Below, one piece after another: positions 48,001 through 64,000 of a DNA stretch of 64,000 nt. Source of the DNA: Elusimicrobiota bacterium (GTDB taxonomy: Bacteria; Elusimicrobiota; Elusimicrobia; UBA1565; JACRDR01); NCBI GenBank assembly GCA_041694815.1, contig JBGFSC010000033.1, positions 90,609 to 154,608 of the forward strand, read 5' to 3'. Positions within the stretch are counted from its first letter, which is position 1. Each line of letters begins with the position of its first letter. Made by a program: the position numbers.

Positions 48001-51000
48001 AGGAGTTATTAGAAGGTCGCGCCGACTGCCAATTCCTCATCGGCCCCCTGCGCTCCGGCTTCGTGTGGCCGACCGAGAAGCTGGCCGTCCTGAGCTCCTC
48101 GGAGCTCTTCGAGCGCTCCTACCGCGGCGCCCCGCGCTGGGGGCGCTACGGCGACGGCTCGCGACGTCGCCTGCGCTGGAAGGAGCTCAAGTCCGGCGAT
48201 TACGTGGTGCACCGCGACTACGGCATCTCCCGCTACCTCGGCATAGAGCCGGTCGAATCCGGGGAGGCCGTCATCGACTGCCTGCGCTTGGAGTTCCGAG
48301 GCTCGGACAAGCTCTACGTCCCCATGACGGATTTCAAGCTCGTCCAAAAGTACGTCGGCTCGGAGGGGCGCCGGCCGCGGCTCTCCTCGCTCGATACTCG
48401 GAGCTGGGAGGCGGTCAAGGCCCGGGTGCGCGAAGGGGTGCGGGAGCTGGCCGAGGAACTGCTCAAGGTGCAGGCGGCCCGGGCCGCCTGGCCGGGGCAC
48501 GCCTTCGGCCCCGATTCGCATATGGAGCGGGAGTTCGCCGCCTCCTTCCCCTACGAGGAGACGCCCGACCAGCGCCGTGCCATCGAGGAGGTCAAGGCCG
48601 ACATGATGCGGCCGCACCCGATGGACCGGGTGGTCATCGGCGACGTCGGCTTCGGCAAAACCGAGGTGGCCATGCGCGCGGCGCTCAAATGCGCGAGCGG
48701 GCTCAAGCAGGCCGCGGTCCTGGTTCCCACGACGATACTGGCCGACCAGCATTTTAGGACCTTCTCCAAGCGCTTCGCCGAGTATCCGGTGCGCCTCGGC
48801 ATGCTCTCGCGTTTCGAGACGCCTTCCAGGCAGAAGAAGACTCTGGATCTGCTGGCCTCCGGGGCGCTTGATATCGTTATTGGGACCCAGCGCCTGCTCT
48901 CTCCGGACGTTAAATTCAAGGACCTGGGCCTTATCGTCGTCGACGAGGAGCACCGCTTCGGGGTGCGGGACAAGGAAAGGCTTAAGGGCTTAAAGAAGAA
49001 CGTCGACGTGCTCAGCCTCTCGGCCACGCCGATACCCCGCACGCTGCACCAGTCGCTCTCGGGGCTGCGCTCGGTATCGATCATCCGCAGCGCGCCCGCG
49101 GGCCGGCAGCCGATCATGACCCGGGTCGGGCCCTGGGATGAAAAACTGGTCGCCGCCGCCATAGAGGCCGAACTTTCGAGAGGAGGGCAGGTCTACTACG
49201 TGCACAACCGTGTCCGGACCTTGGACGCGCGCGCCGACGCCCTGCGCAAGCTCGTGGCCGGCATAAGGGTCTGCGTGGCCCATGGGCAGATGCGCTCGGA
49301 AACGCTGGAAAAGACGATGTGGGATTTTTTCAACCGCAAGCACGATCTCCTGGCCGCCTCGACCATCATTGAGTCGGGGCTCGACATCCCGACGGTCAAC
49401 ACCCTCATCGTCGAGGACGCGCAGGATTTCGGGCTGGCCCAGCTCTATCAATTGCGCGGCCGTATCGGCCGGGAGCGACAGAAGGCCTTCTGCTACCTGC
49501 TGCACCCGCCGGGCTCGGAGCTCGCGCATTTAAGCGAGGAGTCCAGAAAGCGGCTGGAGGCGTTGCGGGAATTCGGCGAGCTCGGCTCCGGGCTGCAGCT
49601 GGCCATGCGCGATTTAGAGATCCGCGGCGCGGGGGATCTCTTGGGCGCCAAGCAGCACGGCTTCGTCGACGCCGTGGGAGTTGAGTTTTATTCCGAGCTT
49701 CTGGGCGAGGAGATCGAGAAGTTAAAGGGGGGAGCCCCCAAGCCGGCGGTCGCTCCGGTCCATCTCGACGTCGAGCTGCCCGCCTTTATACCGGAGGAGT
49801 ATTTGCCTGGGGAGATGGAGAGGCTTGAGTTCTACAAGAGGCTCATCGACGCCGGCCCCGAGCAATGGGCGGCGCTTCGCCGGGAGCTCGAGGACCTTTC
49901 GGGGCCCGCGCCGCGGCCGGTCGTCAATCTATTCCGGCTCTTCGAGCTCAGAGCCAAGGCGTCCGCCGCCGGGCTGCGGGCGTTGTCTCAGCGCGACAAC
50001 CAGGTGGAAGTCTACTTCAGGCCGGACGCGCAGGTCGCGGCCAAGACGCTCTTGGCCTGGCAAAGGGATTTCGGAGGACGGCTCGAGTTCCGGCGCTCGC
50101 CGGAGGGCGACGGGCTGCGCATCCAGCTGCGCGGCGAGGAGCCGATCGGGTGGGTAGAGTCCTTCGTTACTTCTCTGAATCCCAAGTCAGTTTGAAGCGC
50201 TTCTCCGCGGTATCCAGGGAAGAATAGGTATCCCCAATCGAGGCCTTAAGAGACGACTGTCCATTCGCTTCTTTCAATTCCTGCTCCGTAAATCCGATCC
50301 GTCTAATTGAAATGGTGCCGTTCTTTTCTCCCGTGAGGAGCTTGGTGCCGTTCAAATTAAAAGAGGCGGAAAAAATTTCGGACTCGTGCGAGAATGTCAT
50401 GAGTCTTTCTCCAGTGCGCCGATCCCAAAGGATTGCGGTCTTATCGCGGCTTGCAGTAAGCACATGTAAGCCATCCGGGCTCAAGGATACAGAAGAGATA
50501 TATTCCGTGTGTCCGCGCAGCATCAGTTTCATCTCACCCGTGCGGATGTCTAGAAACGTAGCCGTCGGGTTTTTCCAGCCCGTTACGATGATCAGCTCCG
50601 AATCGTCCGGGCTAAAGCGCACTTTTAGAATGTGGTTCTCGTCATCATTAGCCTGCGGCAGGTTGAAGGCGCTTAGTTTGTAGCCATTCGCCGCGTCAAA
50701 GAGAACAAGCTTGTGTTTGTTGTCGTGCGTGATGATCCTTGAACCATCGTGGCTAAATTCTGGGTCGTAGAGACGGGATGAGCCCGGGGGATCGATATCG
50801 TCTAGCACGAATAAACGATTCCCTAAGACTGAGTTCCATGCTACATGTTTCCCGGTGAATATATCATAGGTCATTAGGATGGATGCATCCGGGCTAAATC
50901 GAGAAAGTGCGTGGCCCTGGCTGTTCTCAAGCTTAAGGTCCTTGCCTGTCTTCCGATCGTGGATAATCCAGTAGGCATCGCCGTTTCCTATGGAAATACT

Positions 51001-63000: not shown

Positions 63001-64000
63001 AGAAATTTAACATCGTCGGTAAATGCGTTGCGGGACCGTCCGGTGTCGCAATCCCAAAGCGTGATCGGAGCGTTGAAAAATTTCAGCCCAAGCAACTCCT
63101 TGCCGTCCGGGCTCAGCGTGAAGGGGTAGGCCCACTGGGTGATGAGAATTTTTTCCTCGCCCGTATCAGGATCCCAGAGGATCGCCCGCGGCTCGCTGCG
63201 ATGCAGCGGGTTTTTGTTGTGCTTCATTAGGAAGAACAAAATTCTTGATCCATCGGGATGGAAGCGGGCTTGAAGGATAATCACGCCTGGTTTCTTGAGC
63301 GTCTTAACACGCCGCGCGGACGCCGTATCCCATAGGACGACTTCGCTATACCCATTCCAATGATAGGGAGCCGTACTGGGCTCTAAGGACGCTCCAGCAG
63401 TCACGACGCGCGTACCATCATGGTTGAATGCGGCATCCAAGACATGGCCGCCGTGGGCTTTCACCGAACGGGAGGTTCCGGCCCCAATATCCAAAAGGGC
63501 GATTTCTCCTTCGTCGTTTCCGATCGCCAGTCTGGATCCGTCCGGGCTCCAGTCCCAGGCGGTCGCATAAGATCGAAGCGACAGGGTCCGGTCCGGCCGG
63601 CCATGCAAATCGCGCAGGAGTATCGTGTGATCGTTCTTGAGTATCGCTAAAACCTTTCCATCCGGGCTAAAACGGGCTTGGCGAGCGCCGGCATCAACGA
63701 TGATGCGGCCTTGGTCGCGCTCGAGGATGCGATCCATGATCCCGATCGCCGGTTCTTGCGCCGCAACCTGCGCTATGATAAGAGGAAAGAGGCCAAGGAA
63801 TTTCATCTTCCTTAATTATAGGCTCGTTGATCGATGGGCGTGAGGGCCCTTGGGCCCTTCCGGGAGTAGGCCCTTTGGGCCACAGCTGTCCCAAGAAAGT
63901 TTTTTCTAGAAGGCAAAATCTAGCTGTAATTTTTGTAAATTGTCGTCGCGAATGCGGCCAAGCCTGCGCTCATTAAGTCCCAAAAGATCGATGAGCGTGA

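Follow-up and report, generated by a model that had tools for sequence, protein, structure and literature searches.

Proteins of the bacterial Ton and Tol-Pal systems carry short, disordered, N-terminal and widely conserved peptides, whose receptors are the C-terminal domains of TonB and TolA and the propeller of TolB. These TonB-box, TolA-box and TolB-box docking peptides are terminal disordered stretches of periplasmic and outer-membrane proteins, the propeller protein TolB included, and they bind non-covalently to one receptor domain, neither cleavage nor a membrane helix being involved. A review of the two systems is available (PMC7391070). Another class of terminal label is formed by the tripartite sorting signals, namely LPXTG with sortase, PEP-CTERM with exosortase, GlyGly-CTERM with rhombosortase and MYXO-CTERM with myxosortase. 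Publications on them include PMC3237569, PMC11980579 and bioRxiv 10.1101/2023.06.07.544157. In general, these signals consist of a motif, a transmembrane helix and a basic cluster, are cleaved by a dedicated enzyme, and label dozens of unrelated Sec-exported proteins per genome at the C-terminus, in a many-to-one manner that is recognisable in silico. NCBIfam also holds two models for C-terminal labels of about ten residues without a membrane anchor, NF053834 (ultrashort_CTERM, 10 positions) and NF050076 (sort_motif_YLP, 11 positions). The T9SS C-terminal domain (TIGR04183, Por_Secre_tail, a profile of 72 positions) labels Sec-exported proteins of many folds; it is folded and is removed on secretion. 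In the case of encapsulin cargo-loading peptides and of the dockerin-cohesin pair, unrelated cargo is gathered on one scaffold by a constant short C-terminal handle placed after a flexible linker; encapsulin cargo is cytoplasmic and has no signal peptides, and dockerins are calcium-binding domains of ~70 residues. The ssrA tag, the tails recognized by FtsH and Tsp, and the HbYX tails of proteasomal ATPases are short C-terminal peptides at the end of an unstructured stretch. All of them depend on the extreme C-terminus, and the ssrA and Tsp tails depend also on non-polar residues. To our knowledge, short C-terminal labels without a membrane anchor have barely been studied on exported bacterial proteins.

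Here we describe a label of this last kind in the genome of an Elusimicrobiota bacterium. The window, that is, the whole stretch of 64,000 nucleotides that was analysed, contains a tandem array of 11 genes on the minus strand (50167-63806), which are translationally coupled through overlapping stop and start codons. The array proteins are WD40/PD40 propellers according to Pfam in the five that were scanned, and all 11 end in A-[EQ]-x-R-F-[KR]-L, placed 1-10 residues before the stop (Table 1). A first-pass annotation had already placed 11 WD40 paralogues in one array, which is what we find; it had set the end at 63737, a position inside the last gene. Two paralogues, which keep an internal copy of the tag, are 46.6% identical over 371 residues.

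Table 1. Genes of the tandem propeller array and their C-terminal tags (positions within the window).
Feature	Coordinates	Strand	Length (aa)	C-terminal tag	Remarks
WD40 propeller gene 1	50167..51294	-	375	AEKRFKL (core), 50188-50208	tag followed by TWDSEK, stop TAA
WD40 propeller gene 2	51291..52583	-	430, or 422 from 52559	AEERFKL, 51297-51317	430-aa form starts at an ATG embedded in the P-W codons of the upstream gene; degenerate internal tag AENRFKL at 52365-52385, followed by AMLDRLFDG
WD40 propeller gene 3	52556..53746	-	396	AEKRFKL, 52586-52606	extension PWSQERNDR overlaps the start of the next gene (CCATGG)
WD40 propeller gene 4	53743..54912	-	389, or 381 from 54888	AEERFKL, 53767-53787	low-confidence tail in AlphaFold2 model
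WD40 propeller gene 5	54885..56069	-	394	AEKRFKL, 54915-54935
WD40 propeller gene 6	56042..57139	-	365	AEKRFKL, 56072-56092	no close homologue among 5.8 billion clusters
Double propeller, two tagged units fused	57136..59331	-	731	AEQRFKL, 57169-57189	intact internal tag AEERFKL at 58225-58245, followed by PPERLFDGANP
WD40 propeller gene 8	59322..60410	-	362	AQERFKL, 59334-59354	tag followed by RWE; ATG of the next gene sits in the R-W codons
WD40 propeller gene 9	60407..61495	-	362 from the signal-peptide start	AEERFRL, 60413-60433	longest ORF extends to 61780
WD40 propeller gene 10	61492..62622	-	376	AEKRFRL, 61516-61536	tag followed by PWELFRR
WD40 propeller gene 11	62619..63806	-	395	AEQRFRL, 62652-62672	tag followed by NWDLFQIKFE

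The tag is not restricted to the array. Over the 2.77-Mb genome, x-[ST]-A-E-x-R-F-[KR]-L, often continued by x-W, is found 0-14 residues before the stop in 63 ORFs, a count obtained by combining an HMM of the tag with a C-terminal filter on the six-frame stop-to-stop ORFs of the whole genome. The first-pass annotation was right that the tag is real, and its figures (61 carriers, 31 of 34 WD40 paralogues, 10 of 11 small membrane proteins) are replaced here by 63 carriers, of which 36 are WD40 proteins and 13 are small membrane proteins. Searching the genome with the tag profile gave 66 matches at E<=1. The regular expression [AES][EQKND][EKQRN]RF[KR]L matches 43 times genome-wide in six-frame stop-to-stop ORFs, 40 of these at most 20 residues from the stop, and RFKL occurs 40 times near a stop versus 13 times elsewhere, whereas for the reversed LKFR the figures are 1 and 19 (Fisher p=5e-12). 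The leucine of the tag is the very last residue in 20 carriers and is followed by one residue in 15, by 2-3 in 7 and by 4-14 in 21 (at most one in 35 of the 63). Of the 28 carriers in which at least two residues trail the L, 5 are accounted for by the start codon of a following gene, lying within the x-W codons; the remaining Trp codons at this position are not accounted for in this way.

The tag is selected as protein and is not a DNA repeat, as had been claimed from its codons. Each of the six Arg codons is found at the invariant R, as is each of the six Leu codons at L; codon third positions are 43% identical in the 124 pairs that share the same 7-mer, and the flanking DNA is 27-32% identical; these codon data rule out a DNA repeat or recent gene conversion as the source of the tag. 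When 35 WD40 paralogues, 18-30% identical to the first of them, are aligned, the only invariant columns are M1, one Asp, and the A and R of the tag, the F of which is conserved at >=90%. In the WD40 carriers, the propeller is the variable part and the tail the constant part, which is the pattern expected of a common handle.

The carriers have unrelated folds. They cluster as the 36 WD40 proteins, a family of 13, a family of 2 and 12 singletons; the 13-member family consists of small two-helix membrane proteins, one carrier has an FGE-sulfatase domain (E=5.7e-45) and one is an AAA fragment according to Pfam, and 23 of the 29 carriers scanned match no Pfam family. A signal-peptide-like N-terminus is present in 57 of 63 carriers versus 734 of 2208 other proteins (p=1e-20, by a crude and permissive heuristic). 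Both the variety of folds and the export signals had been pointed out before and are borne out by these numbers. In the membrane-protein carriers, the signal peptide is followed by two hydrophobic helices, and by this count alone the tail would be periplasmic; under the positive-inside rule, the very basic segment downstream of the second helix would argue for a cytoplasmic tail in these proteins. The two big families could have inherited the tail by descent, in which case it would have been acquired independently no more than about 14 times instead of 63.

The motif is only part of what the carriers share. About half of those outside the WD40 family have a conserved helix ahead of the tag: a profile of the helix in the WD40 tails, from which the tag was left out, scores at least 5 bits in 13 of 27 non-WD40 carriers (one of which, C38_28, is a WD40 gene fragment), and among controls in 30 of 1867 C-termini and 19 of 1867 internal segments. 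This points to a unit of ~30-40 residues, made up of helix, linker and tag, and the tail has passed as a module between folds. The tagged FGE-sulfatase runs ~45 residues beyond the '...GFRLVRER' point, which lies near the end of its untagged paralogues. AlphaFold2 places the tag on a low-confidence tail in two models, in agreement with the flexible tail after a helix that had been described earlier. The propeller model has a mean pLDDT of 85.8 and values of 64, 61 and 44 in its last three 10-residue blocks; the small-family model has a core at 82-93 and a tail at 54-56. Neither of these models gave a bound state for the tail, and the propeller model does not place the tail on its own propeller. 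An ESM Atlas look-up with the last 44 residues returned unnamed clusters with a best score of 0.88, and thus no lead.

The claim that the tag belongs to this genome only stands for all of the collections searched. It was not found in 20 relatives or 400 further Elusimicrobiota genomes, nor among 185,579 species (one genome each), 241 million metagenome records and viral contigs. Three pattern matches in one Acidobacteriota MAG come from a non-coding DNA repeat in short ORFs and are not the tag. The two large carrier families are also private to this genome, which explains part of the restricted distribution. No description of the motif or of exported WD40 arrays in Elusimicrobiota was found in the literature searched, at the level of titles and abstract openings. 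The host organism is uncultured, and no second tag-bearing genome was found.

The Ton and Tol boxes resemble the tag in being short, terminal, disordered and free of any membrane helix. The tag differs from them in that it is C-terminal, of unrelated sequence and present in one genome, whereas the boxes are N-terminal and widely conserved and have known receptors. Our tentative preference is for a short linear docking peptide, private to the lineage, which one envelope receptor would bind non-covalently. After export through Sec, the carriers would either reach their fold in the periplasm or be kept in the inner membrane by a helical hairpin. An amphipathic helix would lead, by way of a flexible and mostly acidic linker of ~10-25 residues, to the displayed peptide [ST]-A-E-x-R-F-[KR]-L(-x-W). 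We infer that this peptide would bind a partner, that the partner would be a single common receptor with the envelope as its compartment of action, and that recognition would proceed through the invariant Arg and the Phe/Leu pair. Binding would gather the diversified propellers and the small membrane proteins at one place. Since up to 14 trailing residues and an internal copy are tolerated, a docking peptide fits better than a signal that is read from a free C-terminus. The encapsulin shell Linocin_M18 (PF04454) has no match in the genome, and the 57 carriers with signal-peptide-like N-termini are unlike cytoplasmic cargo.

A receptor was looked for in the neighbourhood of the carriers. In an all-against-all BLAST of the 173 untagged genes that lie no more than three genes away from a carrier, no untagged gene recurred convincingly beside carriers; the neighbours that do recur are two-component genes of very large families, three FGE-sulfatase paralogues and untagged members of the small family. 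Pfam scans of 12 low-GC or neighbouring candidates and of the N-terminal 200 residues of an exported FtsH ORF gave no match suggesting a peptide receptor; the matches were to DUF6624, a dead M41 fragment, CN_hydrolase and a methyltransferase, and the same scan brought up two more WD40 members with variant tags. The genome has four TonB_C-domain genes. Because the tag occurs in one genome only, co-occurrence profiling for its receptor is impossible.

The best surviving alternative, which is still rather unlikely in our opinion, is the boldest reading of the first-pass annotation, namely a C-terminal sorting or secretion signal. A dedicated machine would read the tail and take the carriers onto the outer membrane or through it, perhaps cleaving them. 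As with known sorting tags, one C-terminal label recurs in a single genome on numerous Sec-exported proteins that are not related to each other, and the curated NCBIfam models of 10-11 residues make very short labels an accepted kind. A further C-terminal label is in use in the genome, where the T9SS model TIGR04183 matches 15 times, in 11 cases above the cut-off, and there is a distant, sub-threshold SprA-like ORF. However, the T9SS-type domains lie at coordinates other than those of the 63 carriers, none of which coincides with any of the 15 matches; TIGR04183 is absent from the five array proteins scanned (E<=1) and from all 62 of the thirty-residue tails examined, which are shorter than the profile. 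The tag also differs from that domain in its size, since it comprises 7-11 residues together with a helix, and in its place on a tail of low model confidence. No receptor and no transmembrane segment was found, nor a processing enzyme in searches that covered sortase and exosortase. Unlike the tripartite signals, the motif has no transmembrane helix, no basic cluster and nothing hydrophobic behind it, and no carrier has room for a membrane helix. Sortase (PF04203) has no match in the genome, and exosortase (PF09721) has a single one at 15.8 bits, below the 25.7-bit cut-off. None of 62 tails matches any NCBIfam sorting model, and the tag itself matches no NCBIfam or Pfam model. It differs in sequence from the two ultrashort labels, neither of which matches any carrier, NF053834 having no match in the genome and NF050076 one (13.1 bits, below cut-off) in a non-carrier ORF of 1114 aa. 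Moreover, the 13 integral membrane proteins could not be secreted, the fused protein keeps an internal copy of the tag, and Pro stands directly after the L in 13 of 63 carriers, a position at which this residue disfavours many proteases.

We consider it quite unlikely that the tag is a degron, that is, a recruitment handle for regulated proteolysis in the envelope by, for example, a signal-peptide-bearing FtsH or a tail-specific protease. The layout would suit it, as C-terminal degrons of AAA+ proteases likewise consist of a conserved C-terminal peptide joined to a folded domain by a flexible linker. The genome encodes an FtsH paralogue (G000 C9:20388-22460) in which the membrane anchor is replaced by a signal-peptide-like N-terminus and which adjoins a second gene. 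Three carriers (L035-L037) are exported AAA/AAA-lid fragments, of which only the AAA match is over the Pfam cut-off, and an M41 fragment with a signal peptide (C18:8636-9253), in which HEAGH reads VAGAA, adjoins a carrier. On the other hand, two genomes of the neighbouring genus g2 have orthologues of the exported FtsH (51-53% identity), and a search of both with the tag profile yielded nothing beyond two weak matches in a single one of them (best E 0.73). The exported FtsH was accordingly discarded as a lineage-matched partner, the tag profile having no convincing match in that genus. In addition, the polar, charged character of the tag contrasts with the non-polar FtsH and Tsp tails that are known, and, unlike the ssrA, Tsp and HbYX tails, the tag can be followed by 1-14 residues or stand inside a protein. 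A class II PDZ ligand (hydrophobic, any, hydrophobic, free carboxylate) would have to stop at the L of F-[KR]-L, as just 20 of the 63 carriers do, and nothing ties the small set of PDZ proteins, at 4 loci, to the tag.

Somewhat more improbable still is that the tail acts within or between the carriers, by plugging its own propeller, by binding other propellers, or by pairing with the N-terminal 'x-F-D-G' motif of other carriers so as to form head-to-tail chains. Short peptides are common ligands of WD40 propellers, and in many carriers the signal peptide is directly followed by a conserved motif (LFDG, G-L-L-x-E or S-G-x-x-F-[DGE]). The two motifs are adjacent in the fused protein, as RFKL-PPER-LFDG, and neighbouring loci often pair propeller genes with small-family genes. 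The N-terminal motif, however, is also borne by dozens of untagged proteins, and the tail is found on non-propeller proteins too. The propellers have no conserved surface beyond their structural repeats, which makes them poor candidates for a common receptor, and the AlphaFold2 result given above speaks against docking of the tail on its own propeller. Finally, a passenger module, a C-terminal remnant that was inherited and shuffled among fast-evolving genes of foreign appearance and that now does little, is very improbable: the carrier genes do have low GC (median 0.568 vs 0.640) and GC3 (median 0.65 vs 0.82), many lie at contig ends and two private families hold 49 of the 63, but the tag is the most conserved part of these highly diverged proteins and its synonymous sites are saturated, which requires purifying selection on the peptide.

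The docking-peptide reading can be taken further, to a bolder picture of 'variable head, constant handle' that we regard as unlikely, in which ~36 rapidly diversified exported propellers and accessory proteins would be plugged into one envelope platform, possibly the ATP-driven exported FtsH machinery of the lineage, and the tail would address them to a new periplasmic pathway of recruitment or turnover. The 36 exported WD40 propellers, in which only the scaffold and the tail are constant, resemble a binding repertoire. If docking is what the tag does, it marks out ~63 proteins as acting at a common site, and the tag peptide is a simple bait for finding their receptor. It would also mean that labels of this kind can arise and spread through the gene pool within one lineage.

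The tag x-[ST]-A-E-x-R-F-[KR]-L, often followed by x-W, can be traced through the whole genome of G000. A strict regular expression applied to its six-frame stop-to-stop ORFs found 43 sites, 40 of them at most 20 residues from the stop. The shorter string RFKL lies near a stop in 40 cases and elsewhere in the genome in 13, versus 1 and 19 for the reversed LKFR (Fisher p = 5e-12). A tail HMM plus a C-terminal filter gave 63 ORFs, and a 16-column tag profile (alignment A1) gave 66 matches at E ≤ 1. Beyond the window, gene models come from an ORF caller written for this analysis. 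BLAST clustering of the carriers without their last 30 residues gave a WD40 group of 36, a group of 13 small proteins, a single pair and 12 singletons. In a Pfam scan of 29 non-WD40 or short carriers, 23 had no match; among the rest were one FGE-sulfatase domain (E = 5.7e-45), an AAA fragment above the cut-off and two AAA-lid matches below it. A few more family members show variant endings (AQNRFKF, AELRFRFQ, ADEVFKLW). One WD40 gene is apparently split into ORFs of 330 and 55 aa (C38:22253-23409), the smaller of which retains helix and tag (…AEERFKLW).

The tag is selected at the protein level. All six codons are used for its invariant Arg and likewise for its Leu, and third positions agree in 43% of cases over 124 pairs with identical 7-mers. 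The 60 bases ahead of the tag are 32% identical and the 60 bases past the stop 27%. Among 35 WD40 carriers with 18–30% identity to the first sequence, the only invariant columns are the start Met, one Asp, and the Ala and Arg of the tag, its Phe being at least 90% conserved.

In WD40 and small-family carriers as in singletons, a helix, approximately E-[LFW]-x-x-R-L-[SR]-x-[KQP]-A, precedes the tag by about 10–15 residues, as the aligned last 50 residues of the 63 carriers show. A helix profile built on the WD40 carriers alone, tag omitted, reached at least 5 bits in 13 of the 27 remaining carriers, including C38_28, which is in fact a fragment of a WD40 gene; of 1867 control C-termini 30 did so, and of 1867 internal segments 19. 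Moreover, the tagged FGE-sulfatase carries its helix-linker-tag unit after the point '...GFRLVRER', near which its untagged paralogues end. Judged from the shared helix and this added unit, what is shared exceeds the motif and is a module of about 30–40 residues that has moved between unrelated genes. The last ~30 residues of a propeller (C25:366-1202) and a non-propeller (C40:1195-1923) are nearly identical (…ERLSQKASAIGESAKSLESAEERFKLGWGLI…), as though the C-terminal unit had recently passed between genes that are not related. The exported FGE-sulfatase-domain paralogues form a family of about nine, three of which directly adjoin carriers and one of which is itself tagged.

In the window, all 11 array genes end in A-[EQ]-x-R-F-[KR]-L, placed 1–10 residues ahead of the stop. 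Pfam assigns a WD40/PD40 propeller to each of the five array proteins scanned, and no NCBIfam model covers their tails. Over 371 residues, the product of a gene neighbouring the double-propeller fusion (window 51291-52583) and the second half of that fusion are 46.6% identical. The ATG of the next gene can lie inside the codons right after the tag (window 52581-52586, 54910-54915, 56067-56072 and 59328-59333), in the context CC-ATG-G, which encodes P-W, or xG-ATG-G, which encodes R-W, giving out-of-frame overlaps of 8 to 26 bases. Residues beyond P-W in three array genes are thus fixed by the initial codons of the next gene (MVTGT[KR]RPM), and the long extensions (PWSQERNDR and relatives) are a 26-base overlap with its opening codons. 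A Trp two residues past the Leu of the tag is recurrent; the next ATG lies in its codon context (CCATGG or xGATGG) in 5 carriers, and such an embedded start is absent from most other Trp-bearing carriers. GC content is 55–57% in the array (window 50001-58000 and 62001-64000) versus 62–70% across the remaining window. The window corresponds to C38:90609-154608, and its end is that of the contig.

Features discussed in the text (coordinates on contigs of G000, or within the window where so marked)
Feature	Location	Strand	Remarks
WD40 array	window 50167-63806	-	11 genes in tandem, stops overlapping starts
Double-propeller fusion, 731 aa	window 57136-59331	-	intact internal AEERFKL at 58225-58245, immediately followed by PPERLFDG
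Propeller gene neighbouring the fusion	window 51291-52583	-	degenerate internal AENRFKL, then AMLDRLFDG
FtsH paralogue (L075) and next gene, a 447-aa membrane protein	C9:20388-23826		signal-peptide-like N-terminus replaces two membrane helices
FtsH-like fragment (L141)	C18:8636-9253		signal peptide and Peptidase_M41 piece, E = 2.3e-22
Two adjacent tagged genes (L036, L037)	C38:10099-11516		AAA fragment with degenerate Walker A; AAA-lid piece
Tagged lid-like protein, 131 aa (L035)	C38:155-550		
FGE-sulfatase-domain paralogues	C38:541-1317, C40:383-1168, C19:4047-4973, C34:3618-4589; also C8:7068-7844, C25:10628-11401		
Post-signal-peptide motif	C46:334-3853, C4:108-3064, C38:18725-22298, C54:65158-68450, C11:4794-6319, C52 genes 34-37; several array genes in the window		
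TIGR04183 matches	C40:71160-71390, C27:35165-35401, C54:86621-88278, C54:106704-106955 and others		
SprA-like ORF, 1842 aa	C19:9330-12176		three sub-threshold stretches matching SprA (TIGR04189); distant

Compared with the 66 matches in G000, the tag profile gave 0–3 weak matches in each of the 20 nearest relatives, five of them of the same family (best E 0.024), and a single weak match in each of 4 among 400 further Elusimicrobiota genomes. A 26-base degenerate pattern, which detects exact matches to one form only, E-[TS]-A-E-[EK]-R-F-K-L, the commonest in G000, occurs in 15 places in 185,579 species (one genome each), none of them a tag-like tail on an exported protein. In 241 million metagenome records the same exact-match scan hit 21 places, none tag-like, and it hit none in viral contigs; G000's own records may be missing from the collections scanned. 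Three of the 15 places in the species scan (L088, L093 and L095, on three contigs of one Acidobacteriota MAG) were rejected as a dispersed non-coding DNA repeat unrelated to the tag; the repeat translates to …YAETAEKRFKLRHH… and sits at three places in ORFs of 28–89 codons. By sequence comparison, the WD40 and small cargo families are private as well. One array propeller searched against 5.8 billion clusters had no relative above 38% local identity, its best-scoring hits being at 24–27%. The small family gave one weak N-terminal match among the 20 relatives and 15 hits at E ≤ 0.001 in 1.84 billion representatives. The first twelve of these resemble G000's own members; the last seven comprise four own members or fragments and three without tag, of which two are clearly from elsewhere and one is like an untagged G000 protein.

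The median GC of the carrier genes is 0.568 versus 0.640, and their GC3 is 0.65 versus 0.82. They lie in small islands among ordinary genes, often near contig ends; since many are within 1–2 kb of an end, the paralogue arrays seem to break the assembly, and more copies may be unassembled. The carriers are spread over 21 contigs out of 54, in a genome rated 97.8% complete and 0.48% contaminated, so they are no binning artefact.

A signal-peptide rule, crude and, like the membrane-topology calls, based on simple hydrophobicity, was passed by 57 of 63 carriers versus 734 of 2208 other proteins. By eye, three of the six exceptions have weaker hydrophobic cores; the others are a gene truncated by its contig, a gene fragment and a dubious 77-aa ORF. 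AlphaFold2, given one array propeller with 35 paralogues, models the propeller confidently (mean pLDDT 85.8); the helix at residues 345-356 leads into the tail, whose 10-residue blocks score 64, 61 and 44. For a small-family member, a helical hairpin core (81-188, blocks 82–93) is predicted between a low-confidence N-terminal arm and a low-confidence C-terminal tail (54–56). The small family consists of a signal peptide, the motif L-E-x-x-K-x-x-S-G-x-x-F, a Pro/Ala-rich spacer, P-P-x-P, two hydrophobic helices, a G-R-R-K-D...Y...E-W helix, an acidic linker and the tag. A tail preceded by a signal peptide and two helices would be periplasmic, whereas the basic stretch past the second helix speaks against this.

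A second common motif directly follows the signal peptide: an acidic stretch, then S-G-x-x-F-[DGE] or L-F-D-G, or G-L-L-x-E in many propellers. Most carriers of the small family have it, as do some propellers and dozens of small exported proteins that are untagged; outsiders P0044 and P0046 also bear it without the C-terminal tag, and the exported FtsH has 'KPFDGSS' in its linker.

That the tag is a sorting or secretion signal we consider unlikely. None of 62 tails was matched by an NCBIfam model, NF053834 and NF050076, two curated models of short C-terminal motifs, do not fit the tag, and G000 has no sortase and no exosortase over the cut-off. It has no encapsulin either. Sortase-type signals are defined by a hydrophobic stretch after the motif, and since nothing hydrophobic follows the tag, it fails that definition. 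The T9SS C-terminal domain (TIGR04183) has 15 matches in G000, 11 over cut-off, on large proteins other than carriers. To our knowledge, TIGR04183 and SprA matches are unexpected outside the Bacteroidota group. GldM had no match in G000, and the control for that search likewise matched nowhere.

Less probable still, in our opinion, is a role in envelope proteolysis, as a degron or as a recruitment handle. The gene at C9:20388-22460 codes for an FtsH paralogue whose start resembles a signal peptide, and three of the exported carriers are AAA or AAA-lid fragments. Beside one carrier sits a dead M41 fragment that has a signal peptide and in which HEAGH is replaced by VAGAA. Orthologues of the paralogue are found in relatives G001 and G005 (51–53% identity), the G005 ORF having a similar N-terminal region. 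However, these two genomes belong to a neighbouring genus and gave no convincing match to the tag profile, so the tie between exported FtsH and tag is only suggestive. We regard it as quite improbable that the tail binds its own protein or other carriers, and we give the least credit to the tag being a passenger module.

We tentatively prefer to see the tag as a non-covalent docking peptide for one putative envelope receptor. A PDZ-type C-terminal ligand does not fit, as just 20 of 63 carriers end exactly at the Leu. The tag would rather act as a short linear docking motif displayed on a flexible tether, a reading consistent with a constant peptide on varying bodies, the tolerance of trailing residues and of an internal position, modular transfer and exported carriers.
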